DNA of 64,000 nucleotides, from sequence record PZ386955.1. One strand, written 5' to 3'. Within the stretch, counting starts at the first letter, position 1; every line of letters begins with the position of its first letter. Below are positions 48,885-61,339 of this stretch, one piece after another. Below the pieces are notes generated by a model that saw only the letters and a list, made by a program, of their open reading frames with translations, had not been told where the DNA came from and made no database searches. The DNA is from a phage. Made by a program: the position numbers and the translations under genes.

Positions 48885-49162
48885 CAGTGTAACACTCCCA
48901 GTATGTTGCTTTGTGACATAACCATAGAACATTCAACATTATCGTGACTACGTGAAAAACGTTCCCAAACATCTTCATCGACTCGTAAAGCTATACAAGG
49001 ATAGACGTTATCATTGATCATTTCAATTGAATAAACATCCACATTGTCTTCGTCTTCGATGAACATCATTGCAAACTGTTCTAAATGTTTCCTAATGTAA
49101 TGTACATCCTCTTCTGTAAGACCAATAACAAGATAACTTGCAACGATAATGCCATCTTTCAT
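48884..49162 (-). CDS. Hypothetical protein
   Basis: 92-aa acidic ORF. Confidence 0.35.
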   Translation of the reverse strand: MKDGIIVASYLVIGLTEEDVHYIRKHLEQFAMMFIEDEDNVDVYSIEMINDNVYPCIALRVDEDVWERFSRSHDNVECSMVMSQSNILGVLH

Positions 49163-49172
49163 CTATATCTCC

Positions 49173-49682
49173 TTAGCGATAGAATTGATGTTCTTTGTAG
49201 CGGTACACTAGAACCATATCTTTTTCCCAGTGTGCTCTTATTGTAGATTTTTTAAAGTATAATGCTCCTTTTGTAATATCTAATGCAATTCGTAATTCTG
49301 GAAAATGCGTATCGAGATAAAGTAGACGTTCTGCTATAGCCTTAGCTTCCTTCCACTTATCACGTTCCATAACGTTGAATGTCTTTGTGTAAGAGAATTG
49401 TCCTTTTTGAAACAAAACTTCTTTTATAGTATCAGGGAAATATGAATCTCTAGCCCTATTCAATACTACATTACCAACAGCAGACATACCGCGCTTTCCT
49501 TGATTACGACTTTCTGCATAGATTGCACAAGCTAATAGATTTTCTTTACTATCACGCTTTGTACACTTGTGAACTACTTTAGCAGTTTTTACGTTTGCAG
49601 CTTCGGCTTGCGCCACAACAGGTGTAAATGTAAAAGCAGTTAAGGATAGTAACGCAATTGCGACAAAGGTTTTTATTGACAA
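49173..49682 (-). CDS. Secreted cell-wall hydrolase (SleB/CwlJ-type), candidate endolysin
   Basis: N-terminal signal peptide MSIKTFVAIALLSLTAFTFTPVVAQA; hydrolase block LLACAIYAESRNQGKRGMSAVGNVVLNRA. Confidence 0.6.
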   Translation of the reverse strand: MSIKTFVAIALLSLTAFTFTPVVAQAEAANVKTAKVVHKCTKRDSKENLLACAIYAESRNQGKRGMSAVGNVVLNRARDSYFPDTIKEVLFQKGQFSYTKTFNVMERDKWKEAKAIAERLLYLDTHFPELRIALDITKGALYFKKSTIRAHWEKDMVLVYRYKEHQFYR

Positions 49683-49774
49683 ACTTGCCTCCTATTTTGT
49701 TAAACGAACTTTTATTGTAACACAGAAGAGGCTGTTTTGCAAGTGGAGGGGGATTATCCCCCTCTTACACTCTG

Positions 49775-50377
49775 TTAGATATTGTAAACCTTCGTATGAG
49801 TTACTACACCATCTTCTACAAAATCAATACGTTCTTGATCCGTAACTAGTGCAGACAACACTTTAAATTTAATTTTTACACGTTCAAAAGCTGGTTGACC
49901 ATCTTTAAGATAATTATGTTCGGTTGTCACTGTCTTGTTTACAAAATCAACTTTCGCTTTACCGTTTTCGCGTAGGTGGAATGTTTTTCCTGCTTTGTAC
50001 ACAATTTCAACATTACCTTCGAGAATAATTCCTTCAAAAAGTTCACCCTCTTCTTCATTTTCTTCACTTTTGAACAGACGACGAAACTCTTCCATATCAA
50101 GATAAACAACATCTTCAGAATAACTATCAGTAAGGTATGTCTTACCATCCATTAACCCGAAATATTGCCAGATCGCAGAATAAACATCACTAGTTGATCC
50201 AAGGGTTTCTCTGAGTTTAGTTCCACGGATTACTTCATAAACTTCAAAATTGAAACCAGACTGCAAAGCATCAAACAGTACATCACTAACTTCTACAGCA
50301 TAATCTTGATTGTTGTCAACATCCACAAGAAAATTGCCGCTACGAATAAGTTTTTGACCTTCTAAAGTAATACCCAT
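49775..50377 (-). CDS. Hypothetical protein
   Basis: 200-aa acidic ORF downstream of TerD; no recognisable motif. Confidence 0.4.
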   Translation of the reverse strand: MGITLEGQKLIRSGNFLVDVDNNQDYAVEVSDVLFDALQSGFNFEVYEVIRGTKLRETLGSTSDVYSAIWQYFGLMDGKTYLTDSYSEDVVYLDMEEFRRLFKSEENEEEGELFEGIILEGNVEIVYKAGKTFHLRENGKAKVDFVNKTVTTEHNYLKDGQPAFERVKIKFKVLSALVTDQERIDFVEDGVVTHTKVYNI

Positions 50378-50404
50378 TGTTTTCTCCTCTTTTATTTAAA
50401 ATAT

Positions 50405-50420
50405 GCGCCCCGAAGGGCGC
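50405..50420 (-). terminator. Rho-independent terminator after the TerD gene
   Basis: GCGCCC-CGAA-GGGCGC hairpin; on the minus strand followed by ATATTTTAAATAAAAG. Confidence 0.55.
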
Positions 50421-50429
50421 TATGATTTA

Positions 50430-51026
50430 TTACTCGAACCAATCGTCGCCAGCGCCAAACGCTTTAACTACATCGTAAATGTCAAGCCCAGCTTTACCCA
50501 CACCATACGCTTTCAGTTTCCATTCGCTATCTTCTCGCACCAGGGAGGCAACGTGGCAAATGGTGTTACCTGCAAGTTCTGGAGCCAAGAAGTCAAAGTC
50601 CAGCAGTTCAACATTACGTTCATCATCGAAGATTTTAAGGAAACCTTCGGTAGCGTGACCAAGGCGTTTCTTACCCGTTTCGTCATCAATAGTAATTACG
50701 AATGCAATTTCCTGTGCTTCAGCAGAGATATTATCCAGTGTAACATCAATCTGCTCCATCTGTCCTACACCATCACGAACATCTTCACCTGCAAAAGTAG
50801 AACGTTCAGGATCAAATTTCTGCGCGTAGCACACCAGGTGACGAGGAGACAACAGTTCCGGCAGACCAGATGCATTGTGTCGGCAAATCAGAGCACTAAC
50901 ATCCAGATCCAGTTTTTCGTTAGATTTCCAAGAGAATTCCAGACGAATGCGTTTCAGTGCTGGTGCAATCTTTTTCAGAGAAACTTTTTCGCTAGAACCT
51001 TTTTTCAGGGAAATTTTCTGAGTCAT
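50430..51026 (-). CDS. TerD-family protein (tellurium-resistance TerD/TerE/TerZ domain)
   Basis: N-terminal ISLKKGSSEKVSLKK, DLDVSAL, IAFVITIDD, C-terminal EWKLKAYGVGKAG align block-by-block with R478 TerD. Confidence 0.75.
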   Translation of the reverse strand: MTQKISLKKGSSEKVSLKKIAPALKRIRLEFSWKSNEKLDLDVSALICRHNASGLPELLSPRHLVCYAQKFDPERSTFAGEDVRDGVGQMEQIDVTLDNISAEAQEIAFVITIDDETGKKRLGHATEGFLKIFDDERNVELLDFDFLAPELAGNTICHVASLVREDSEWKLKAYGVGKAGLDIYDVVKAFGAGDDWFE

Positions 51027-51098
51027 AATTTATTATCTCCTTTGTTGTTAATTTACGTTGTCTATTTTACTAATCTTTTCTACAAAGTCAAGCGTTTT

Positions 51099-51893
51099 TT
51101 ACGCTTTTGCTCCAAATTTTTTAACCCACTCACCAAACTCTTCGGATAGCAGTTTATCGTAAAGTTCTTCGTCAGACAAGGACAAATCTGCAATACCGAT
51201 AAAATCAACATTATCGTATTCTTTTGCCAAGTCTTTCAGGAATTTAAAGTTTGCATTACCTACACCAACCATAAACCAGTAAACAGGCGTATTGCGGTGT
51301 TTGTTCAGTAAGCTACGTACTGCTGAAGTATCCATGTTCTCCCCGTCAGTTTGGAAGAAAATCATTGCAGGAGTACGATCAACTTGTGCATCAGTATCTA
51401 CAACCTGTTCTACAACAGTACGTGTTACTTCTACAAGTTCTTTTTTACCAGTTAGTTTAGCAAGGAAACCTTTAGCCGGAACTTCTTCATACTCAACGAC
51501 TTCGCGTGTAATATTTTTCATAGGTACACTACCGAAGTATGTATCATAGATCTCTTGCATTACTGGAGCATAAGCAGTACCACCGTTGATGCAAACATTA
51601 GACATGCAAGAGCCGACATAATCATCATACACATCAGCCGTTGCAGGAGGCAGTTCAAAAGAAGAACTATTGAAAGCCCACATGTCAATCTGTGCATTAT
51701 CATCAAACTTCATACCAAACGGCAGCAGTTTACCTACAAAATCGCTAACAGTGCCATCACGATACAGCTCACACATACTACCCGAAATATCTAAGGCGCT
51801 ACCTACACGAAGAACAACATCGTTAATCTTTTTCTTACGCAGGGATACAGTAAGAGTTTCTTGACGTTTTTTAAGACTGATTTTATTGGACAT
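51099..51893 (-). CDS. von Willebrand factor A domain protein (TerY-like)
   Basis: MIDAS-type motif DISGSM and downstream FFQTDGENMD (TDG motif); N-terminus ISLKKRQETLTVSLRKK resembles the TerD N-terminal strand. Confidence 0.65.
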   Translation of the reverse strand: MSNKISLKKRQETLTVSLRKKKINDVVLRVGSALDISGSMCELYRDGTVSDFVGKLLPFGMKFDDNAQIDMWAFNSSSFELPPATADVYDDYVGSCMSNVCINGGTAYAPVMQEIYDTYFGSVPMKNITREVVEYEEVPAKGFLAKLTGKKELVEVTRTVVEQVVDTDAQVDRTPAMIFFQTDGENMDTSAVRSLLNKHRNTPVYWFMVGVGNANFKFLKDLAKEYDNVDFIGIADLSLSDEELYDKLLSEEFGEWVKKFGAKA

Positions 51894-51894
51894 A

Positions 51895-52164
51895 TTATTT
51901 CTCCTTTCTGACTGTAATGTTAGTAACTTCTAAATCCACTTCTACCACTTCTGTATCATATAAAATACAGTTAAGTTGACCTCTTTGTGAACCGTTAAGA
52001 CACATTGCTTGGTTTGTATTAACCTTAATAAACACTAAGTTTCTGAACGTATCTAAACCAGCATCTTGATAGGCAACATAATATACGAATGTATCACCTG
52101 TGTCAAGTTCTCCAAAACATTTAGGTTCATCTGATTTGTCGTCTTTGATATTAAATTTAAGCAC
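51895..52164 (-). CDS. Hypothetical protein
   Basis: 89-aa ORF coupled to the vWA gene. Confidence 0.35.
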   Translation of the reverse strand: MLKFNIKDDKSDEPKCFGELDTGDTFVYYVAYQDAGLDTFRNLVFIKVNTNQAMCLNGSQRGQLNCILYDTEVVEVDLEVTNITVRKEK

Positions 52165-52720
52165 TGTCTTCTCCTTTACCTGCTCTCAAGCCTAAATAGA
52201 AAGCCTCTCTAGTGATTTTTTGCAACTCGTTTAAAGAGATAGTTACAACTAAATCATCTTCAATTTCTAGCTTTGAGTCTTCTTCTGTCTCAATGCAAGT
52301 ATTATGCACTTTGTGGTAAGGATTGTCAACACGTTTAAATTTATTATTTTCAGTGCTGAAGAAGCAATCTGGATCTTCTTCTCCATCACCCCAACCCTGG
52401 TTAGGGTCTTCTTCAGATCTTTCTGTTGGGATCTCACCTGTAAAGTGTTCTTCTAATACCAGAGCAATCCCATCTCCAAGATCGGAAGAGAACATCAAAT
52501 TACAAACTTCTTCCCAAGGCATAGACCACTTGAATCTTTTACGATTGCCATGTTTATCTTCTTCGTTAGAGAAAACACTACCATAGCTATCATAATTCCC
52601 ATACATCTCTTCGACAACCTTACCACCTTTCAAAAGAAATAGGTAGCAAGGAGAGCCATCGAAAGAGGTAGAAAGAGCAGCATTACCAGACTCTTTGCAC
52701 AAGAAACTAAAACACCCCAT
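52157..52720 (-). CDS. Hypothetical acidic protein
   Basis: 187-aa ORF, Asp/Glu-rich, Cys-containing. Confidence 0.4.
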   Translation of the reverse strand: MGCFSFLCKESGNAALSTSFDGSPCYLFLLKGGKVVEEMYGNYDSYGSVFSNEEDKHGNRKRFKWSMPWEEVCNLMFSSDLGDGIALVLEEHFTGEIPTERSEEDPNQGWGDGEEDPDCFFSTENNKFKRVDNPYHKVHNTCIETEEDSKLEIEDDLVVTISLNELQKITREAFYLGLRAGKGEDSA

Positions 52721-52920
52721 TATACACCAGCCTTAAGATCAATTAAAGCCAAAGTTGTTTCAGAGTGTGTTTGCTCGTCTACAGGTGCAGTCATATGATA
52801 ATACAAAAAATCTTCGGCATCATACCAATCTGATTCTTGACCTTGTTTCCAACCATCAATGAAAGCATCTTCCATAATGGTTTGCAATTCTTCACGAGTT
52901 AAGTGAATATCTTTACTCAT
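52720..52920 (-). CDS. Hypothetical protein
   Basis: 66-aa acidic ORF, coupled. Confidence 0.3.
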   Translation of the reverse strand: MSKDIHLTREELQTIMEDAFIDGWKQGQESDWYDAEDFLYYHMTAPVDEQTHSETTLALIDLKAGV

Positions 52921-53126
52921 TACACATTCTCCTCTTTTACCAATTCCATCGTTGAACTATCAAAACCATCTTTAGAAGAATAGGTATAGACAGAACGTAG
53001 TTCTCGCAGGACAGTGAATACATTGGGATCATCTAACCAAGCATCCTGGAGGAGAACATAACGATCTTCATTGTCGTACTGGACAGCAATCATAGAACCA
53101 GACAGTTTGTAAATTTTAATATTCAT
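52920..53126 (-). CDS. Hypothetical protein
   Basis: Start moved to internal ATG 53126 preceded by AAGGAGAA (track start 53153 overlaps upstream gene). Confidence 0.3.
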   Translation of the reverse strand: MNIKIYKLSGSMIAVQYDNEDRYVLLQDAWLDDPNVFTVLRELRSVYTYSSKDGFDSSTMELVKEENV

Positions 53127-53139
53127 AATATATTTCTCC

Positions 53140-54243
53140 TTAAAGTAGACCACGTTTAACAGTTTGAATCATACCATCTTCAAGAGATTGCACTTCTTGA
53201 ATGTAATCAATACGCGCAGCACGGGCTTCAGTGTTGATTCGGTTAGTTTCTTCCAACATTTTAACTAAGTTTTCTTGATCGCGACGTAATGTTTCAATAT
53301 CCAATACTTGACGATTAGCAAGTTGTGTAGCTTCAATTTGGTTTTGTGCAGCCAGATCACTACCCATTGCAATAGCAGCATTAAATTCATTCAGCACATT
53401 GTTCTGTGTATCGGCTGCTTTCTTCTGGCGTAGACTTTCAATATACATAGAAAAGTTTGCAGAGTAAGCAGGGATAACATTATTCACAATATTACGGGCT
53501 GATCGCATCAAACTTGCAGATACTTTCTGCATACTTTGTACCCGTGGCCCCATCTGAACACACAGTAAACGCAAGGCTTTCAGGTCTGCAATACGAATTT
53601 CAAGCAGATCCATAGTATCACGAGTACGTTGACGCTCTTCTACTTCATTTTCAGGTAGTGTATTAAGGCGAACTTCTTCTTTTTCATAAGTAGCTGTTAG
53701 AAGCTCTATATCCCTGTTTAAGCTAAGAGCATATTTTGCAATAGCCTCTTCTAAACGTTGCAGATATCGTAAAGAATCTTCTTCTTTTTTCAAGTCTGTT
53801 TGTAGTGTCTTTACCAAACCTTCAATACGGTTATTGATGGTGTCAAATTCTCCAAACAAATCTTCTTTCATACCTAATACTTTCTTAACTAGTTTACCTA
53901 AGCCTTTAGATTGTTTAATAGAGTTAGGATCAAGTTGCTTTGCTTGCTTAATAAGTGCAGTTAAACGTTCACTCATTTCATCCCCCTGAGATGAACGCTG
54001 GTGTTTAAGCACTTCAGCATTAAGGTTACGAAGAGTAAGTCCTGCATCAGCACCAACTTGTTCAATCTCTTCACGAGACATTGGAGGCAGCATTTGTACA
54101 GGTCGTGCAACAGCAGGGGCATATACAGGGCTTGCATCCATAGCACTTGGAGCAAACAAAGACTTACTTTTTTCTGTTGTTGCCGTGAATACACTCATTT
54201 CAGACGGTTTGCTTTTTACGGCACTGATAAAAGGACTGGACAT
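53140..54243 (-). CDS. TelA/KlaA-like toxic-anion-resistance family protein (tentative)
   Basis: 367-aa, predicted largely helical/coiled-coil, size and composition fit TelA; located among TerD, vWA and TerC genes; not verified by HMM. Confidence 0.4.
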   Translation of the reverse strand: MSSPFISAVKSKPSEMSVFTATTEKSKSLFAPSAMDASPVYAPAVARPVQMLPPMSREEIEQVGADAGLTLRNLNAEVLKHQRSSQGDEMSERLTALIKQAKQLDPNSIKQSKGLGKLVKKVLGMKEDLFGEFDTINNRIEGLVKTLQTDLKKEEDSLRYLQRLEEAIAKYALSLNRDIELLTATYEKEEVRLNTLPENEVEERQRTRDTMDLLEIRIADLKALRLLCVQMGPRVQSMQKVSASLMRSARNIVNNVIPAYSANFSMYIESLRQKKAADTQNNVLNEFNAAIAMGSDLAAQNQIEATQLANRQVLDIETLRRDQENLVKMLEETNRINTEARAARIDYIQEVQSLEDGMIQTVKRGLL

Positions 54244-54311
54244 TCAATTTCCTCCATATTCTTTAGTAGATGGTGATACCTCTGTACCACCATCATAACA
54301 CAAATTAAGTA

Positions 54312-55163
54312 TTAAACAAACATATCTAAATAATTTGTAGTAATAAATGCTCCATCTGCTTCCAGATTAACATAACCAGTAGCATTAGTGGTTAAGAAAT
54401 CCAGATCGAAGGACTCTTTAACACCCCGTACCTCAACACGAGAGATATCGAATACAGGTAGTGTAACAGCCTCTTCGTGCAATACCGTACCTTTGTAGGT
54501 TGCCTTAATGATAAACTTGATATTACCCGTTCCAGCATCATACAAAACACTTTCAAACCCTTTGAGAGTATACTTATCACCAGAAGTGAAGTGCAAAGTT
54601 GCTTTGTTTACAGTACGTTTCTTACGAGGAGTTCCTTTCACACGTTTATGATCACTACGTTTTTTGTATTTAGGAATGAATACAAACGATACATTGTGAA
54701 GAAAGGTATCAACATCAAGGATTTTAATATCCTCTGTTGCAGCAAATTTTGAAGTTGTTGCATCAAAATGCTTTTCCCTGCGATCATACATAAAGATATC
54801 AAACCGATCTTCTAAATCAAACAAATTATGTATTTTAATTTCAGAATGCTTGCGCATTGCAGCAACCTTGAACTCTTCAAAACGTGGGTGTTCTACAAGT
54901 TCTTCAAGTTTTACACCAAAGACAGTATATTGCTTCGGAGTTTTTTCTGGTGTTGGCATTACAGAAGCATAATCCCCGATTGCGCTCTTAAAGCAAAATT
55001 GTTCTTGACCTGTATTTTTACCAACGAATTTACAGTATTCGTCATCGTGCATACTTTCCTGGGTAGTACCAACAAACTCAAAACCATCTTTATTCTTCTC
55101 AAGAATTTCTTGATTAAAGATCCAACCTTCCAGGCGATACACTTTACCAACTTCTAGTTTCAT
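54312..55163 (-). CDS. Hypothetical protein
   Basis: 283-aa ORF, Lys-rich central region. Confidence 0.4.
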   Translation of the reverse strand: MKLEVGKVYRLEGWIFNQEILEKNKDGFEFVGTTQESMHDDEYCKFVGKNTGQEQFCFKSAIGDYASVMPTPEKTPKQYTVFGVKLEELVEHPRFEEFKVAAMRKHSEIKIHNLFDLEDRFDIFMYDRREKHFDATTSKFAATEDIKILDVDTFLHNVSFVFIPKYKKRSDHKRVKGTPRKKRTVNKATLHFTSGDKYTLKGFESVLYDAGTGNIKFIIKATYKGTVLHEEAVTLPVFDISRVEVRGVKESFDLDFLTTNATGYVNLEADGAFITTNYLDMFV

Positions 55164-55198
55164 CTGTTTCTCCTTCTTATTTAATCTGTATTAAATTA

Positions 55199-55789
55199 TT
55201 AACGACGACGTGAGCTACTAAAACTACGTTTCGACGAAGAATAACTTTTCGAAGACTTACTATAAGAGCTAATAGGGCTTGAGTAAGACTTACGAGCAGA
55301 GTAATTACTATTCACTTTTGTTGTTGATGGGCGTGAATACGTTTGTACACTTTGCTGCTTAATTGTGTTTTGTTTAGTGGTTGTATATGTATTCCCTTGT
55401 TTATCATAAAAACTATGCTTTTGTGTTGTATATGCTTTACTGTTAGTTATAGGAGCAGCGTTGTTATTAATAATTGTTGTGCTGCTACCACCATCCCTAT
55501 AACCACCACCGCCACTATTACCACTCAACATATGACCAAGAAGCATACCTGTAGCGAACTCACCTACGCCAGAAGAACCACTGCCGCCTCCTTGAACAAC
55601 AACTGTTGAAGGTTGTGCAGGTGCTGCTTGAACAACTTGAGGTGCAGGTTGATTTACATATTGCTCATCTACCATCTGATTTGGTGTTTGTTGGTAACGT
55701 TGATTTTGTACATTTTCAGAATCATCACAACCTACCAGCAATACACTACCTAAAACAACTGCAACAATAAAAGATTTAATGTTTTTCAT
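55199..55789 (-). CDS. Lipoprotein with glycine-zipper and Ser/Tyr/Lys-rich tail
   Basis: Signal peptide plus lipobox MKNIKSFIVAVVLGSVLLVGC; GGGSGSSGVGEFATGMLLGHMLSG; C-terminal SYSKSSKSYSSSKRSFSSSRRR. Confidence 0.55.
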   Translation of the reverse strand: MKNIKSFIVAVVLGSVLLVGCDDSENVQNQRYQQTPNQMVDEQYVNQPAPQVVQAAPAQPSTVVVQGGGSGSSGVGEFATGMLLGHMLSGNSGGGGYRDGGSSTTIINNNAAPITNSKAYTTQKHSFYDKQGNTYTTTKQNTIKQQSVQTYSRPSTTKVNSNYSARKSYSSPISSYSKSSKSYSSSKRSFSSSRRR

Positions 55790-55982
55790 TTGTAACCCTC
55801 TCATTTAAAGTCTCAACACAATTTTTAAAATCCCTAGAGAAACAATACATCTGTTCTCCGTTCCTGTTGATAGTAATTGTATGGTTATCAATATATGTTG
55901 TCAAGATAAAAATCAAACAAAACAACCCTAGAGCAAAACAAATATTTTCAAACAGAATCCAAAGAACACGTAAAACCACCAT
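55776..55982 (-). CDS. Small membrane protein
   Basis: 68 aa with hydrophobic helix; stop overlaps the lipoprotein start by 14 nt. Confidence 0.35.
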   Translation of the reverse strand: MVVLRVLWILFENICFALGLFCLIFILTTYIDNHTITINRNGEQMYCFSRDFKNCVETLNERVTNEKH

Positions 55983-56021
55983 CAGATCACCTCAACAAAG
56001 CCCCCGAAGGGGCTTAATGAA

Positions 56022-56999
56022 TTAAGCAACAGTCTGGTCTTCTTTTTCAGGGAAGATTAAACTTGCAATAACACCCAACCCAAGAGTACCTAACACGATA
56101 TACATACTGATCGTCGGGTCAATGTGTGCTGGCAGGAAACTCATTTTTGCGTGCAGAGTTTCTGCAAACGGATGATACATCAGTTTTACACCCACAAACA
56201 CCAAGACTACGATAACTGCTTTCTCCAGATGAACCAAATACTTCAGTGCAACACTAAGAACAAAGAACAGAGCACGTAAACCTAAGATTGCACAGAGCAT
56301 CGAAGAGAACACCAGCAGAGGTTCTTGTGTCACTGCAATTACTGCTGGAACAGAGTCTACTGCAAAGATTACGTCAACCATTTCCATTACAAACACACAA
56401 ACCAGAGCCGGAGTTGCTACACGAACACCATTTTTGATTGTGAAGAACTTCTCACCATCCATCTGATCAGATACAGGGAACAGCTTACGAACAATGCGAG
56501 TAGCCCAGTGTTTAGAGTAATCAACTTCTGCATCATTATCTCCAGCGAATACCATTTTAGCCGCACAGAAAAGGATGACAGCACCGAAGAAGATATTAAC
56601 ATACCAGCCCAAACTCAACAAGTAAGTGCCTACTGCTACAAACACACCTCGGAAGACAATCGCACCTGCAATACCCCAAAGTAGAATCTTGTGTTGTAAG
56701 TGTGTGCTTTTAATACCAAAACTTGCGAATACTGCCACAAATACTACTAAGTTATCTACAGAAAGAGATTTCTCCAACACATACCCACTCAAGAACAAGC
56801 TCGCAAAATCAGCACCGTGTTGGAAGTATACAAAACCATAGTAGGCTAATGATACTCCAATCCAGAAAATTGACCAGCCAATTGCAGATTTAAATGAAAT
56901 TTCTTTGTTTTCTCTGTGTCCAAAGAAGTCAATACAAATCGACAAGACTAAAATACCCACTAAAACAACCACATCAATAATTGGGAAACCCAGTTGCAT
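56022..56999 (-). CDS. TerC-family integral membrane protein
   Basis: Multi-pass membrane protein with duplicated TerC signature: EKSLSVDNLVVFVAVFASFG and FAVDSVPAVIAVTQEPLLVFSSMLCAILGLRALFF. Confidence 0.75.
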   Translation of the reverse strand: MQLGFPIIDVVVLVGILVLSICIDFFGHRENKEISFKSAIGWSIFWIGVSLAYYGFVYFQHGADFASLFLSGYVLEKSLSVDNLVVFVAVFASFGIKSTHLQHKILLWGIAGAIVFRGVFVAVGTYLLSLGWYVNIFFGAVILFCAAKMVFAGDNDAEVDYSKHWATRIVRKLFPVSDQMDGEKFFTIKNGVRVATPALVCVFVMEMVDVIFAVDSVPAVIAVTQEPLLVFSSMLCAILGLRALFFVLSVALKYLVHLEKAVIVVLVFVGVKLMYHPFAETLHAKMSFLPAHIDPTISMYIVLGTLGLGVIASLIFPEKEDQTVA

Positions 57000-57076
57000 T
57001 CTTTTCTCCTCTTTAATGCGGAGGACAATCCTCCGCTCTATGTCTTATACTATAAACTGTTTTTAAAGAAAGTCAA

Positions 57077-57325
57077 CTAGTTCAGTTCTGTAATTTTAAG
57101 TTTATCTTCTTTGTTAATGATAGGGAAAGCTACAGCATCACCTACATCATCAATAAAGCAAATAGCAAGACCACCTTCCACTTTGCTAACCTGACCATTA
57201 AAGGCATGATACGGGGCAGGAACTTCATCTCCATCTTCAATGAGAATAGCCTCGTAAACCTTGCCGATAGTACAATCACGGGTGTTTATAAATTTTTCAA
57301 GCACTTCAACATTTACTTTACGCAT
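57077..57325 (-). CDS. Hypothetical protein
   Basis: 82-aa ORF upstream of TerC. Confidence 0.35.
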   Translation of the reverse strand: MRKVNVEVLEKFINTRDCTIGKVYEAILIEDGDEVPAPYHAFNGQVSKVEGGLAICFIDDVGDAVAFPIINKEDKLKITELN

Positions 57326-57339
57326 ATAAAGATCCTCTC

Positions 57340-57546
57340 TTATTTGTTAGATTGAAAGATACCACGGAGTACCGCAAGAATGAACGTCACACAGACTACA
57401 CTCCAAAACGTTACAGGAACATGATGCCAGTCTAAGCCGATAATGTCAATCATATAATTGTATGCTAAAAGCAGTAGCCAACTAGGGATTAACACAATCA
57501 AGAACACAACAATAAAACAACCTAATACTGCTAAAACACCTGCCAT
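57340..57546 (-). CDS. Small two-TM membrane protein (holin-like topology)
   Basis: 68 aa with two hydrophobic helices and a short charged C-terminus. Confidence 0.4.
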   Translation of the reverse strand: MAGVLAVLGCFIVVFLIVLIPSWLLLLAYNYMIDIIGLDWHHVPVTFWSVVCVTFILAVLRGIFQSNK

Positions 57547-57555
57547 ACTTTCTCC

Positions 57556-58272
57556 TTATTTCAGTTTGTAAACAATTACATTTAAACCTTTGTTTACTAG
57601 AGTTTCTTCGATCATAAGTTTTACAATATTCCAAGAACCTCCAGCCAAACCACAACCAAGCATTGGTAAACCTACAATTTTACCGCCTGAAGATACAACA
57701 TCGTCTCCCATACTATCTAGCGCATTGTAGATAGCTTCATAATTCAGGTCACGCTTACCTTCCTCACGACGACTATAACCATATTGTCCATATAAATTAT
57801 AAATTGTCAAATTGTTTTCTGTATATTTGGTAAACGTACCTAATTTTTTATAATCACCACGTTTAGTGGCACAATCTGCTTTAAACGCACCAGGCCACTT
57901 GCTTTTAATTTTTGGTGCAATACCACTACCCATAGTGCAAAAACAGTTACAGCAGTGTGCTATAGCGTCTATATCGCCTCTCTCGGCTGCTGCTAAAAGA
58001 TCACCGTATACCTCAATGATACCTGCTGGATAACTTGTTACAATTTCATCTTCCCAGTACATTTTCTCTACACCACCGATCAGTGCAAAGTTTTGTGTAA
58101 TGCGATCATCAATATAGTTAAGACCTGAAACATACACAGCGTATTCATCCTGTGCTGTAATACCTTGCACACGAATTCTTAAGACACCATCTTTATCTGT
58201 TGCTACACGCCCAAAATCTTTTTCTGTAATATTGGTGATAGGATCTCCGAAAGTCATTACTTTATTAGACAT
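57556..58272 (-). CDS. Macrodomain protein, TARG1/OARD1-like (ADP-ribose processing)
   Basis: C-terminal ~150 aa align with human TARG1: GDLLA..(11)..IAHCCNCFCTMGSGIA vs GDLFA..LAHCISEDCRMGAGIA; LPMLGCGLAGGSWNIVKLMIEE...VIVYKL vs [24 protein letters not shown]...ITVYTL. Start at internal ATG 58272. Confidence 0.65.
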   Translation of the reverse strand: MSNKVMTFGDPITNITEKDFGRVATDKDGVLRIRVQGITAQDEYAVYVSGLNYIDDRITQNFALIGGVEKMYWEDEIVTSYPAGIIEVYGDLLAAAERGDIDAIAHCCNCFCTMGSGIAPKIKSKWPGAFKADCATKRGDYKKLGTFTKYTENNLTIYNLYGQYGYSRREEGKRDLNYEAIYNALDSMGDDVVSSGGKIVGLPMLGCGLAGGSWNIVKLMIEETLVNKGLNVIVYKLK

Positions 58273-59122
58273 AATAATCCCCTTTAACATTAGATTTGTT
58301 GATAATGTTGCTTTCAAAAAATTGACGTAGGAAATCAAAGTTCTCTTTGTATTTTTCAATGTTATTGTAACCTTCTGCAAGGCAACCAAAGAACAGTTGT
58401 TCTACATAATACAAAGGAAGTTGTGAAAGTGCAATTTTAAAATCAACTTCGCTTTGACTCATTAGATACTTAATAGGACGAACCAAACATTTAGCATCAG
58501 TTTCTTGCTTAATCATTTTAATAAAAGCTGCCAGATTATTGATATAGTTGAAGTTAAGTGCAGCTTCGGTATTGGCTTCTGTACCTTCATACTTTGCAAA
58601 GTACAGGAAAAACGTATCGTTTTCAACACCTTCTTTGTCTAAAATTTCAATAAGTTTTTCTTCGTGCGTTCCTGTAATATTAACATCATCAATGAAAATC
58701 AGAGTTTTATTACCCCAGAAATCACGATTGATAGAGAAAGTGTCACCATCGATCAAAGCCTTACGATCTTCTTTGCTAAGAAATCCATAATCATTGATAT
58801 AGCTCACTTTACGATGAACGATATCCCACTCCACTGGTTTACCACCTTTGATAGAGATTAGGTAGTTGAGGTGATCTACAAAATGTTCAGATAACACTGT
58901 AGCTGCATTTTTCACATAGTTATATGGAGATGGAATAACAACAAAACTTTCATTTACCAGTCGTTCTTCATACTTAGAAAAGAAACTTTCAGCCAGAATG
59001 CGCCCCATTCTTTTTGCTGCCTGGTTACTACCAAACTTTAGCTTGGAATAATCTGCAATGTTAAATTTTGCTTCCTTCAGGTTAGTAAAAGTATTAGCAA
59101 AATGTTGAATTTGATTACGCAT
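58265..59122 (-). CDS. Phosphoribosyltransferase (type I PRPP-binding motif)
   Basis: PRPP-binding signature TLIFIDDVNITGTHEEK; stop overlaps the macrodomain start by 8 nt. Confidence 0.55.
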   Translation of the reverse strand: MRNQIQHFANTFTNLKEAKFNIADYSKLKFGSNQAAKRMGRILAESFFSKYEERLVNESFVVIPSPYNYVKNAATVLSEHFVDHLNYLISIKGGKPVEWDIVHRKVSYINDYGFLSKEDRKALIDGDTFSINRDFWGNKTLIFIDDVNITGTHEEKLIEILDKEGVENDTFFLYFAKYEGTEANTEAALNFNYINNLAAFIKMIKQETDAKCLVRPIKYLMSQSEVDFKIALSQLPLYYVEQLFFGCLAEGYNNIEKYKENFDFLRQFFESNIINKSNVKGDYYV

Positions 59123-59771
59123 TAATAAGTTCCTCTTTTTTAAGTTTAGCCAACAAGTCTTCTGGATTAATAATATGACAGAACTTCATCCCTATGTCAA
59201 CAGCTTTTCCATCATAAATCAAACTATCTCCAACGTGTAAAATCTCCTCTGGTGCAAGATCAAACGTCACCATTTCATCAAAAGAGAGTTTAAAAAACCT
59301 AGGATCTGGTTTACACAAGCAAAACTCGTCAGAAAAATGCATAAAGTCGAATGGTAATTTTGTTAAACCAGAATATACAGCTAAGAAACTACCTGGTACA
59401 AAATTAGTATTGCTCTTAATACTCAAAGAATAGGTTGAACTTAGCTCTTCCAACTTCTTGCAAAGTTCAGGATTCAATGTTGGAGGATGTTTTATAAACA
59501 TTGCTAAACAGTCTCTTTTTAACCCATCCACTTTATCAAGATCAATGTTCAAACGAGTAGAAAGTGTAACCCAAGCATCCTTAGACGTTCCACAAATGCC
59601 TTTTTCTGCTTTTAAATCCAAGAGGGTTTTTACCTCTTTATATACGGTAGCTGCTTCTACCTCAGAACAAGAGGCATACTCGGCAATGACCTTGTTGCGC
59701 TCTTCTGCATACAAAGGGTTAGCAGTAATAAGAGTATTCCATACATCAAAAGAAATATGCTTAACAGTCAT
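59115..59771 (-). CDS. HAD-superfamily hydrolase-like protein
   Basis: Motif I-like ISFDVWNTLI and motif IV GDSLIYD; start at ATG 59771 with GGAGGA RBS; stop overlaps PRTase start by 8 nt. Confidence 0.45.
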   Translation of the reverse strand: MTVKHISFDVWNTLITANPLYAEERNKVIAEYASCSEVEAATVYKEVKTLLDLKAEKGICGTSKDAWVTLSTRLNIDLDKVDGLKRDCLAMFIKHPPTLNPELCKKLEELSSTYSLSIKSNTNFVPGSFLAVYSGLTKLPFDFMHFSDEFCLCKPDPRFFKLSFDEMVTFDLAPEEILHVGDSLIYDGKAVDIGMKFCHIINPEDLLAKLKKEELINA

Positions 59772-59773
59772 TT

Positions 59774-59929
59774 TTAATCCTCCGTCCAAAAGAATATCAT
59801 CTGCTTAATTTTATTGATCTCTTGATGTAGTAACTTTCCAGCATGTGATTGATCTTTAATATTGACAGCAAGAATTTCAAGTTCCGTTAGTTTTTCTTGG
59901 ATAGCTTTATATTCATCATCTGTAAGCAT
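59774..59929 (-). CDS. Small hypothetical protein (51 aa), not in ORF track
   Basis: ATG at 59929 preceded by AAGGGGAAG; MLTDDEYKAIQEKLTELEILAVNIKDQSHAGK...; stop 2 nt before the HAD start. Confidence 0.3.
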   Translation of the reverse strand: MLTDDEYKAIQEKLTELEILAVNIKDQSHAGKLLHQEINKIKQMIFFWTED

Positions 59930-59940
59930 TTTCTTCCCCT

Positions 59941-60144
59941 TTAGAATGGTAATCTTTGTATGTCACTTATACCCACACCAAGAAGTCTAGCAATATCCTT
60001 ATCTAAAAGCAACTCTTTTTGTTCTAAAATGTTAATCAGATCTCCTAATACTTCTTTAATGTCACGATCATTTTTAGCAACGTGACCACCTGCCGTATCA
60101 ACTTTATCTTTAAAAACAAAGTAATGATCCATAATACCCTCCAT
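59941..60144 (-). CDS. Hypothetical protein
   Basis: 67-aa ORF directly after a terminator hairpin. Confidence 0.35.
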   Translation of the reverse strand: MEGIMDHYFVFKDKVDTAGGHVAKNDRDIKEVLGDLINILEQKELLLDKDIARLLGVGISDIQRLPF

Positions 60145-60150
60145 ATAAAT

Positions 60151-60172
60151 AAAGGAGGCTTTCGCCTCCTTT
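60151..60172 (-). terminator. Rho-independent terminator after the AAA ATPase gene
   Basis: AAAGGAGGC-loop-GCCTCCTTT hairpin; on the minus strand followed by ATTTAT. Confidence 0.5.
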
Positions 60173-60178
60173 TATCAC

Positions 60179-61339
60179 TTAGTAAGAACGACCACCAAAC
60201 ACATACTCTGTGTAGTTTTTACGTTCTTTGTTTTTAATAACAACTTCAATGTTGTTGCCTTTATCATCGGTGAACACAAAGTGATAACCGTCACCACCCA
60301 TTGTACGGATGTGTTTTTCATCATACGTCAGCAAGATACGGTCTACACCCCAGTAGTAGTCACCTTCTTCATCTTTATCTTCTACGGTAACGACTCCTTC
60401 CATTTCAGGAAGATGCTCTTCTCCTAGCTTATGGTCTACAGCTACAACATAACGATTACCGCTAAACAAACCCTGTGCTGTCATACCGTCAATATCGGTA
60501 TCTGCCGAAACATCTCCTGTACGGTCTACACCGTTGACTTTCAGAAGTTTAACTTCTTTTGCAGCATAGCGGTGTTCAGTAATACTGATACCCATTAATG
60601 CAAGTGCATCAGAGAATTTGTCATTAGGGTAACGGTTAAGTTCTTCTACTAAGGACTGAACAATATCAAAGTTCAAATCCACGGAAAGATTATAAAGCGT
60701 TTCAAAATCTGGTAAAAAGGCTTTGTTCTCCAGATTTTTAGCCAGATAGTCATCCATAGTAGCTTTAGGTAGTTTCTTATAGCTAAAGCTGTAGAAAATA
60801 CGGCTAGGACGATTACGCAAAAATTCTGATACATAACCATCATTTTTAGTCAATACAAACAGCTTGTCATAGCCACCAACACCATCCAGCAGGGTAAGCA
60901 AACCATCCTGTGCATCTTTTTCAGCATACAGTTTATCAAATTCATCGATCATAATCATCACAGGTTGTGTGATTTTAGACATAAAATTGATAAAGCCTTC
61001 ACCATTAAAAGCACTACCGATAGAAATAGTAGGAATACCCATTTCACGAAGAGCAGAAGACAGCATTTTAGCTTGCAAAGTTTTACCGCTACCCTTCGTA
61101 CCCTCAAGGAGAACACCTGTGTTTTTACCTTTGCGGCTAAGGAACGTCTTGATAATACGTTCTGATTTATCATCAGTATCACCGTATGTTACTGAAGGGA
61201 CTTCCATATCGTTTTTAGGATACAGGAAGAACTCACCACTTTGAGTAACACCTACACCAAAAGTTCCTGCTGGAATTTCTTCGATATCTGTACCAGACTT
61301 CTGACGCAGGAAGATTTGATTGCCGAATACTGTAAACAT
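60179..61339 (-). CDS. AAA-type ATPase with uncharacterised C-terminal domain
   Basis: Walker A LLEGTKGSGKT and Walker B VMIMIDEFDK; C-terminal ~130 aa have no recognisable motif. Confidence 0.55.
   Translation of the reverse strand: MFTVFGNQIFLRQKSGTDIEEIPAGTFGVGVTQSGEFFLYPKNDMEVPSVTYGDTDDKSERIIKTFLSRKGKNTGVLLEGTKGSGKTLQAKMLSSALREMGIPTISIGSAFNGEGFINFMSKITQPVMIMIDEFDKLYAEKDAQDGLLTLLDGVGGYDKLFVLTKNDGYVSEFLRNRPSRIFYSFSYKKLPKATMDDYLAKNLENKAFLPDFETLYNLSVDLNFDIVQSLVEELNRYPNDKFSDALALMGISITEHRYAAKEVKLLKVNGVDRTGDVSADTDIDGMTAQGLFSGNRYVVAVDHKLGEEHLPEMEGVVTVEDKDEEGDYYWGVDRILLTYDEKHIRTMGGDGYHFVFTDDKGNNIEVVIKNKERKNYTEYVFGGRSY

Follow-up and report, generated by a model that had tools for sequence, protein, structure and literature searches.

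The 64,000-nucleotide (nt) stretch of phage DNA analyzed here (sequence record PZ386955.1; hereafter the window) contains a Ter gene block that is bracketed by two terminators (~50405 to 60172) and consists of three separable pieces, namely, a reduced Ter core, an invariant pair of genes encoding a HAD-superfamily enzyme and a phosphoribosyltransferase (PRTase) of the PRTase_3 family, and a macrodomain gene. All genes of the block lie on the minus strand, as do the other features described below unless otherwise stated. Based on megablast and on annotated relatives, the phage is a Justusliebigvirus, i.e., a phi92-like virulent myovirus of E. coli belonging to the Stephanstirmvirinae. The locus itself is already known, having been annotated in dozens of GenBank records and discussed in print. 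We consider it an even call that the block specifies an early, membrane-directed Ter core that keeps the envelope and cation balance of the infected cell stable and renders the cell refractory to second invaders, with the product of the gene pair as its ligand and the macrodomain protein as an independent ADP-ribose eraser. Ter genes occur widely among bacteria, plasmids, and large phages, have a clinical association with infection (K. pneumoniae and enterohemorrhagic E. coli), and make up a long-unexplained system. The phi92-group block is among the smallest contiguous versions of this system (one TerC, TerD, TelA, and TerF-type vWA protein plus a two-gene metabolite module) and is carried by virulent phages that grow on E. 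coli K-12, which makes it a practical experimental entry point. To the existing annotation we add the boundaries of the block, predicted independent transcription units for terC and terD, a covarying hairpin in the terC leader, the recognition of the HAD-PRTase_3 pair with its Trp at position Asp+2, and the separation of the macrodomain gene from that pair.

Pfam profile searches agree with the original prediction, which had been made from the sequence alone, in assigning TerD, TelA, TerC, PRTase, HAD, and macrodomain genes to this region, with the HAD match borderline and its motifs intact; the motifs quoted at that time (DISGSM, TDG, LSVDN, FAVDSVPA, and ILGLR) can all be read in the translations. 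More specifically, the TerC/Alx-type integral membrane protein (56022 to 56999) matches Pfam PF03741 (E = 1e-38), has at least eight transmembrane segments, contains the motifs LSVDN, FAVDSVPA, and ILGLR, and passes the NCBIfam model of the Alx subfamily, TIGR03718 (323 bits versus a cutoff of 246). The single TerD-domain protein (50430 to 51026; PF02342, E = 5e-28) aligns over 176 residues to the K. pneumoniae TerD structures 2KXT and 3IBZ. The TelA-family helical protein (53140 to 54243; PF05816, E = 5e-34), for which no transmembrane segment is predicted and whose ratio of nonsynonymous to synonymous substitution rates (dN/dS) is 0.08, is encoded by the first gene of an operon that runs from TelA to the vWA gene (51099 to 51893). 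The product of the latter matches the vWA-TerF-like family PF10138 (E = 1e-38), scores under the cutoff of the generic VWA model (22.8 versus 23.8 bits), and carries three readable MIDAS-type motifs (DISGSM, GGT, and TDG). Sequence search yielded no solved relatives of the vWA and TelA proteins.

Profile searches detected no match in any open reading frame (ORF) of the block to TerB, to a second TerD paralogue (TerZ, TerA, or TerE), or to TerW, an ATP-grasp enzyme, or a TIM-barrel lyase. Thus, the Ter set is reduced, and the earlier description of a phage carrying the whole set does not hold, as TerB, the TerZ/A/E paralogues, ATP-grasp, and TerW are all absent. Likewise, the vWA protein had been called TerY-like: that it is a vWA protein stands, whereas the TerY type does not, since the matching family is that of TerF, no kinase or PP2C partner is encoded in the block, and PADLOC reported no TerY-P. 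We could also rule out other catalogued defense systems, given that PADLOC returned only a partial match to the DarG macrodomain plus noise.

The first gene of the pair (59115 to 59771) encodes the HAD-superfamily enzyme. Its match to Pfam Hydrolase is borderline (26.1 bits versus a cutoff of 26.4), and NCBIfam HAD models match weakly, with none reaching its cutoff and scores that fall short by a wide or a narrow margin (HAD-IA subfamily model, 22.2 versus 23.3). HAD motifs I to IV are present in the alignment, and motif I (SFDVWNTL) keeps the nucleophile Asp. At position Asp+2, HAD phosphatases have their general acid/base, a residue for which dehalogenases, phosphonatase, and P-type ATPases have substitutions. 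In the phage enzyme this position is occupied by Trp, so that the phosphatase motif DxDx(T/V) is not matched while motifs II to IV are retained, and Trp is found at the same place in 29 of 30 HAD proteins paired with PRTase_3, bacterial ones included (Hymenobacter and Rhizobium plasmids), for which the motif I consensus is S(F/L)DxWxT(L/I). Given this Trp, the label "phosphatase" for the HAD partner is an assumption rather than a result, and its chemistry may be noncanonical. The second gene (58265 to 59122) encodes a type I PRTase of the ComF-like PRTase_3 family (PF15610, E = 1.5e-41) with an extra C-terminal helical domain. In its phosphoribosyl pyrophosphate (PRPP) loop, IDDVxITGTHE, residues D145, D146, T150, and G151 are invariant. 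The AlphaFold model (pLDDT 91.5) has HG(X)PRT (6-oxopurine), PyrR, and ComF as its nearest folds, matched over the type I core only (TM-score 0.3 to 0.45); the C-terminal helical domain gave no fold match, and a PDB sequence search returned nothing useful. As only the generic type I core was matched, the structure does not allow base specificity to be assigned. Both enzymes look active, because the PRPP loop and the HAD motifs are kept and the model bears out the PRTase fold.

We examined the linkage of the pair by means of tblastn and contig look-ups, including a scan of IMG/VR that contributed 16 loci, so that the statistics are those of a small sample. The HAD gene directly precedes PRTase_3 at all loci examined, i.e., at ~25 distinct loci from Xanthomonas, Rhizobium, Caulobacter, and Brevundimonas phages, uncultivated viral contigs, and Rhizobium and Hymenobacter plasmids. 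Ter genes occur within 10 kb of the pair in 8 of ~19 independent lineages outside Stephanstirmvirinae, one of which is a bacterial Hymenobacter plasmid with three TerD genes alongside a vWA/PP2C/kinase set. Where the pair lies elsewhere in a phage genome (XaC1, Rhizobium phages, and CcrColossus), a TerF-type vWA protein is still encoded. Together, this linkage and the co-presence of the vWA protein support the functional connection to Ter proteins that has been published for the pair. PRTase_3 is present in 157 records, and no homologue was found on enterobacterial or R478-type plasmids, the only plasmids matched being those of Rhizobium, Sinorhizobium, and Hymenobacter. As a separate observation, the pair in some jumbo phages is followed by a ~530-amino acid (aa) DUF2828/DUF7788 protein (XaC1 locus L004, 8333 to 11527; L010, 9345 to 12562), and its surroundings there (RNA ligase, CCA-adding enzyme, 2H phosphoesterase, NUDIX, and PTH2) are RNA-repair-like, unlike the Ter context.

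The ORFs of the region from 49775 to 59771 map one-to-one, via annotated relatives, onto phi92 gp171 to gp187, and we use these gene numbers for the unnamed genes. At its upstream end, the block is bounded by a terminator-like GC hairpin (60151 to 60172) 3' of the upstream AAA-ATPase gene, at the same place where a terminator is annotated in phage Paula. At its downstream end, it is bounded by a bidirectional GC hairpin terminator (50405 to 50420, no strand assigned) directly 3' of terD. The range first proposed, 49775 to 59771, captured the Ter block; its first gene, gp171 (49775 to 50377), is probably outside the unit. This gene lies beyond the terD terminator, is lineage-specific, and is missing from Phapecoctavirus ESCO13, in which terD is directly followed by a hairpin and the promoter of the SleB gene. 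Within the block, the first unit contains, in order, gp189, gp188, HAD, PRTase, macrodomain, gp184, and gp183, with overlaps of 8 nt each at the HAD/PRTase and PRTase/macrodomain junctions. It is followed by terC; then by gp181, gp180, and gp179; then by TelA, gp177, gp176, gp175, gp174, and vWA, which form a compact operon with overlaps or gaps of at most 14 nt, TelA being first and vWA last; and finally by terD.

Our analysis predicts that terC is a monocistronic unit, and that terC and terD each have a sigma70-like promoter and a terminator of their own. A promoter-like sequence in the gap upstream of terC (TTGACT-16-TATAGT, 57049 to 57076) and one upstream of terD (TTGACT-16-TAAAAT, 51064 to 51091) are consensus matches only, and an equivalent pair of TTGAC(A/T) and -10 elements precedes terC in six lineages. 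Read from the sequence, an intrinsic-terminator-like hairpin, GCCCC-TTCG-GGGGC followed by TTTGTT, lies immediately after the terC stop codon (56000 to 56013), and an equivalent hairpin trails terC in ESCO13. The 77-nt terC leader contains a conserved 7-bp stem-loop (57018 to 57036) between the promoter and the Shine-Dalgarno sequence. Among six diverged phage lineages, which have this promoter, hairpin, and Shine-Dalgarno layout in common, five of the seven base pairs exhibit compensatory changes and none is broken. A riboswitch upstream of terC, as found for bacterial alx, is ruled out, since the leader consists of a simple conserved hairpin and Rfam models, that of the yybP-ykoY riboswitch included, gave no match at E values up to 1 in positions 49000 to 61000. 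The hairpin may stabilize the mRNA at its 5' end or act in regulation, in place of the Mn riboswitch that precedes bacterial alx.

The region from 49775 to 59771 is matched by 92 phage records, 55 of which cover at least 80% of it (megablast); nearly all of them are Justusliebigvirus members of Stephanstirmvirinae, and the top match, Escherichia phage Antha, is 99.5% identical. At least 55 phage genomes, each sequenced independently, contain the 10-kb block in collinear form at 98 to 99.5% identity. The block belongs to the genome arm for replication and nucleotide metabolism; on one flank are four glycosyltransferase genes and a SleB-type hydrolase gene, and on the other are an AAA ATPase gene and nrdG/nrdD. 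Its GC content (0.35 to 0.39 throughout) matches the rest of the window, in which no tRNA gene was found over the full 64 kb. The phage setting described by the original prediction is correct. The gene order is shared with ESCO13 and Klebsiella phage KP2025. ESCO13 proteins are between 48% (HAD) and 81% (TerD) identical to their counterparts in the window, and dN/dS values for all 13 genes shared with ESCO13 are 0.07 to 0.37, at synonymous divergence near saturation. All shared genes are under purifying selection. The phage copies are, by sequence divergence, old lineages with no recent capture, because none of ~2,600 plasmid copies exceeds 49% identity for TerC or 37% for the vWA protein.

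Two side observations concern the distribution of these genes. First, terC of the Phapecoctavirus phages Mt1B1_P17, ESCO37, and tuntematon is 95 to 96% identical to the Justusliebigvirus allele, compared to ~71% for other members of the genus, which suggests that terC was recently exchanged between the two genera. Second, four records labeled "Campylobacter phage" (MG065639, MG065645, MG065656, and MG065689; host given as C. jejuni) are 98.4% identical to the block, and near-identical genes are also present in "Pseudomonas phage PsgM04F" and "Serratia phage KKP_3264"; such host labels may be wrong or may stem from contaminating coliphages.

The original prediction knew of no characterization of such genes in a phage, but phage Ter clusters, including those of phi92, PhiPsa374, and phiKp34, have been described, and GenBank annotations exist. 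The Ter clusters of phi92 (gp172 to gp187), phAPEC8/ESCO13, and BASEL phages Bas61 to Bas63 represent the same locus, from which our block differs only by small lineage-specific genes (gp171, gp177, gp183, and gp188) and by the N-terminal extension of the macrodomain protein. In the database records of near-identical phages, genes are already labeled as TerC, TelA/toxic anion resistance, stress protein, PRTase, macrodomain, and HAD, and "alx-like ter cluster genes" have been noted in print for phi92 and vKMB37. We found nothing on the block in the CRISPRi-ART and BASEL data for phi92-like phages. The Ter systems of jumbo phages (Acinetobacter ME3 and Caulobacter phages), PhiPsa374, and phiKp34 share TerC, TerD, TerF-type vWA, and TelA, with or without PRTase and HAD, and these phages are likewise virulent; the PhiPsa374 and phiKp34 papers list terC, terD, terF, and telA. 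Relative to the jumbo-phage systems, the genome here is ~146 kb in size and the genes form a contiguous 10-kb block with one TerD and an appended macrodomain gene.

The bacterial and plasmid ter locus (terZABCDEF plus terWXY and biosynthetic genes; IncHI2 plasmid R478, the E. coli O157 island, and K. pneumoniae plasmids) also contains TerC, TerD-domain, TerF-type vWA, and TelA proteins, and the Anantharaman-Aravind scheme links it to a PRTase and HAD metabolite module; the locus also has envelope, phage, and colicin associations. In contrast to that locus, the phage block lacks TerB, TerZ/A/E, TerW, TerY-kinase-PP2C, and the ATP-grasp/TIM-barrel enzymes, its proteins are less than 50% identical to the plasmid ones, its PRTase_3 has no homologue on enterobacterial ter plasmids, and its TerD has a degenerate calcium motif. 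The TerY-P triad (TerY vWA, PP2C, and Ser/Thr kinase) is not present in the block, whereas a true triad is found on the Hymenobacter plasmid. Phage TerC belongs to the same TIGR03718 subfamily as E. coli Alx, which is responsive to Mn2+ and pH and controlled by a yybP-ykoY riboswitch, but the phage leader consists of a promoter, the covarying hairpin, and the Shine-Dalgarno sequence.

The mechanism to which we give even weight would operate as follows. Host RNA polymerase would transcribe the block early in infection. The reduced Ter core, which comprises the TerC/Alx-type transporter, the TelA-to-TerF-type-vWA operon, and the one TerD, and which is accompanied by a predicted inner-membrane lipoprotein and two small membrane proteins, would act at the inner membrane of the infected cell and buffer divalent-cation and envelope stress. 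The cell would thereby become refractory to second invaders (other phages and pore-forming colicins) and to premature collapse, and the investment of the phage would be protected. The HAD-PRTase_3 pair is predicted to couple a base with PRPP and to convert the product to a nucleoside-like small molecule, which would likely serve the soluble TerD and vWA proteins as ligand or signal, and the product of the macrodomain gene, a gene common among phages generally, would independently remove ADP-ribose marks or metabolites. Tellurite resistance itself would not be the selected function. Consistently, the block has a membrane focus, as TerC, one lipoprotein, and two small transmembrane proteins are encoded in it. 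Iyer, Anantharaman, Krishnan, Burroughs, and Aravind described phage Ter systems with PRTase and HAD signal-biosynthesis genes in 2021 and proposed their use against superinfecting phages and possibly in xenobiotic tolerance (PMC7824862); the roles named in the original prediction, i.e., superinfection exclusion, control of envelope or metal stress, and synthesis of a ribosylated metabolite, match that comparative-genomics hypothesis and are plausible. Furthermore, the R478 ter locus was found to confer phage inhibition and colicin resistance (Whelan 1995, as summarized in citing papers), K. pneumoniae terC is needed for tolerance of polymyxin B and cetylpyridinium chloride (PMC9933665) and affects Zn/Mn resistance and, modestly, phage resistance (PMC12054061), and gut jumbo phages strongly transcribe their terD operons (PMC12880540).

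Several points weigh against this mechanism. The block lacks TerB and TerZ, and insertions in terZ, terC, and terD reduced or abolished the R478 phenotypes, as cited in PMC12054061. In K. pneumoniae, the effect of terC on phages was small and mainly one on plaque size (PMC12054061), the PhiPsa374 authors deem incomplete ter sets unlikely to give tellurite resistance, and our literature search turned up no experiment on any phage-borne ter gene. The calcium-binding signature of TerD is degenerate, with GEDVRDGVGQMEQ replacing the acidic GDNRTGEGDGDDE, and is similar in ESCO13, so that calcium binding by the phage TerD is uncertain; in the family alignment, the acidic signature is intact in Hymenobacter TerDs and in one viral contig. 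As the HAD enzyme has no Asp+2 general acid, simple nucleotide dephosphorylation is not assured, and roughly one in two HAD-PRTase_3 pairs has no Ter genes next to it, with some pairs located in RNA-repair-like neighborhoods. Moreover, neither promoter-like sites (50 versus 39.6 ± 7 in shuffles) nor terminator-like sites (8 versus 6.2 ± 2) are enriched regionally, and thus the promoter and terminator assignments, together with the early timing, draw on position and conservation only.

The Ter core could instead manage metals for the phage's own needs, an explanation that we consider unlikely. TerC/Alx, with TerD and the vWA protein as metal-binding partners, would then adjust cytoplasmic or periplasmic Mn2+, Zn2+, or Ca2+ and thereby metallate or protect phage enzymes or exported proteins, e.g., the SleB-type hydrolase, and exclusion of competitors would not be the purpose. 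The membership of TerC in the Alx metal-homeostasis subfamily and the three MIDAS-type motifs of the vWA protein fit this proposal, as does the position of the block between anaerobic ribonucleotide reductase genes and a SleB hydrolase with a signal peptide. In addition, terC influences Zn and Mn resistance in K. pneumoniae, where Zn induces the ter operon (PMC12054061), TerC family proteins are reported to act as metal chaperones for export in B. subtilis (PMC12096827), and many smaller phages (Proteus, Cronobacter, Vibrio, and Pectobacterium phages) encode TerC alone with no Ter genes nearby. However, the TerD calcium motif is degenerate, the terC leader has a plain hairpin in place of the Mn-sensing riboswitch of bacterial alx, one K. 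pneumoniae study found that TerC is not needed under metal stress (PMC9933665), and TelA and the HAD-PRTase_3 pair are left unexplained.

The macrodomain gene (57556 to 58272; Pfam Macro, E = 3e-7, 30.8 bits versus a cutoff of 22) bears on a second alternative, that HAD, PRTase_3, and the macrodomain protein act jointly on nucleotide or ADP-ribose chemistry as a counter-defense module independent of Ter, either by making a decoy or replacement metabolite or by erasing ADP-ribosylation and ADP-ribose-derived immune signals, such that adjacency to Ter genes would be incidental. The protein consists of a ~85-aa N-terminal region that is specific to Justusliebigvirus, followed by a macrodomain of the TARG1/SCO6735/BT1257/DarG class, whose best PDB matches are 5e3b (SCO6735) and 2fg1 (BT1257; E ~4e-15), with TARG1 also close. 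These best family matches, i.e., DarG-type and TARG1/SCO6735-type ADP-ribosyl hydrolases, are in line with a joint function, as are the two 8-nt overlaps that translationally couple the three genes in the phage and the published view that phage macrodomains degrade ADP-ribose signals. Similarly, the jumbo-phage pair lies among the RNA ligase, CCA-adding enzyme, 2H phosphoesterase, and NUDIX genes mentioned above, with a macrodomain gene 7 to 9 kb away. Nevertheless, 2,973 phage records contain the macrodomain family, with T4-like, FelixO1-like, and many other phages among them, and almost all of these records lack PRTase_3. The macrodomain gene abuts the pair only in the Stephanstirmvirinae-like clade, and the 8-nt PRTase/macrodomain overlap exists only in Justusliebigvirus, in which the N-terminal extension was added. 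DarG membership fails, since the equivalog model NF048014 yields 48.9 bits versus a cutoff of 250 and is covered only at positions 4 to 147 of 338, without the C-terminal domain; the PADLOC match to DarG likewise covers the macrodomain part only, and the block has no DarT-like neighbor of the gene. The phage macrodomain is 30% identical to human TARG1 (pairwise BLASTP), whose catalytic residues K84 and D125 correspond to Gln and Ala in the phage protein. Thus, relative to the TARG1/DarG class, it lacks the Lys84/Asp125 equivalents, the DarT-binding domain, and the DarT partner, and possesses the extra N-terminal region. Finally, linkage of the pair to Ter genes is far above chance adjacency, including in a bacterium. 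On this evidence, we regard counter-defense independent of Ter as improbable. The "PRTase-HAD-macrodomain triad" of the original prediction is therefore an invariant HAD-PRTase_3 pair, which survives, plus a generic phage macrodomain, which adjoins it in this clade only.

A further possibility, and to our minds quite an unlikely one, is that the block is a self-contained signal-and-effector system. The DxW-type HAD enzyme and PRTase_3 would make a noncanonical ribosylated base in the infected cell, and this nucleoside-like messenger would be read by TerD and the vWA protein, which in turn would switch TerC and TelA to seal the envelope against incoming phage DNA, colicins, or membrane-depolarizing abortive-infection effectors. 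If true, this compact version, found in E. coli K-12 phages amenable to engineering, would for the first time in three decades explain the Ter system biochemically, and it would establish a novel type of phage device for superinfection exclusion or against abortive infection.

An auxiliary resistance set that benefits the host, by conferring tolerance of tellurite, xenobiotics, or antibiotics in prolonged or pseudolysogenic infection, is very unlikely. Xenobiotic tolerance in pseudolysogeny was raised as an additional possibility by Iyer et al. (PMC7824862), and bacterial ter loci do confer tellurite resistance (PMC9933665 and PMC12054061), but the phage is virulent, its block resides among early replication and nucleotide-metabolism genes and lacks TerB, TerZ, TerA, and TerE, and the judgment of the PhiPsa374 authors on incomplete sets applies here as well. 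Misassembly of host or plasmid DNA into the phage contig, which the original prediction had named as a possible refutation, was checked and not borne out, and we regard its probability as negligible in view of the uniform composition, the same content and position in at least 55 independent collinear phage genomes from many laboratories, the absence of any plasmid copy above 49% protein identity, and the lack of a PRTase_3 match in enterobacterial plasmids.

The remaining genes of the block encode small or accessory proteins, among which the several small membrane proteins expected from the first inspection were recovered: gp181 (55776 to 55982) with one transmembrane segment, gp184 (57340 to 57546; conserved in ESCO13 and KP2025) with two, and the predicted inner-membrane lipoprotein gp180 (55199 to 55789). 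The latter has the lipobox LVGC with Asp at +2, Gln- and Ser-rich regions, a short glycine-zipper motif (GxFxxGxxxGH), and a Gln-rich linker, and its PHROG alignment begins at Met6. A gp180-like architecture is also seen a few kb from the HAD-PRTase pair in distant jumbo phages (L010, 5748 to 6257; L004, 5543 to 6040) with no adjacent Ter genes, a likeness that may be partly compositional. Upstream of the HAD gene lie gp189 (67 aa, 59941 to 60144), the first gene after the terminator and conserved in ESCO13, and gp188 (51 aa, 59774 to 59929), which is lineage-specific and not conserved in ESCO13; neither has a significant Pfam match. The last gene before the terC promoter, gp183 (82 aa, 57077 to 57325), is likewise lineage-specific and not conserved in ESCO13. 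The 283-aa gp179 (54312 to 55163) has no Pfam or NCBIfam match, belongs to a PHROG family of unknown function, and is conserved only in part in sister genera.

Within the TelA-to-vWA operon, gp177 (52920 to 53126) is lineage-specific, gp176 (52720 to 52920) is conserved across the clade, and gp174 (89 aa, 51895 to 52164) is conserved and is duplicated in ESCO13. The fourth, gp175 (52157 to 52720), has an N-terminal domain of ~135 aa from a widespread phage family that has no Pfam entry, includes 294 homologues (marine metagenomes among them), and shows the invariants G2-C3-F4-S5...C8...D-P-x-Q-G-W-G; its model (pLDDT 85) gave no fold match in PDB or BFVD. As this family is widespread in phages outside Ter contexts, we rejected gp175 as a hidden Ter component. 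A plus-strand ORF of 248 aa (50403 to 51149), antisense across all of terD, is a shadow ORF and not a separate feature.

Adjacent to the block, the SleB-type cell-wall hydrolase gene (49173 to 49682) has its own sigma70-like promoter (TTGCAA-17-TACAAT), and its product carries a cleavable-looking signal peptide (…VVAQA|EA), which would be unusual if the hydrolase were the lysis endolysin. It may instead be a periplasmic peptidoglycan-remodeling enzyme that is expressed apart from the late lysis genes.

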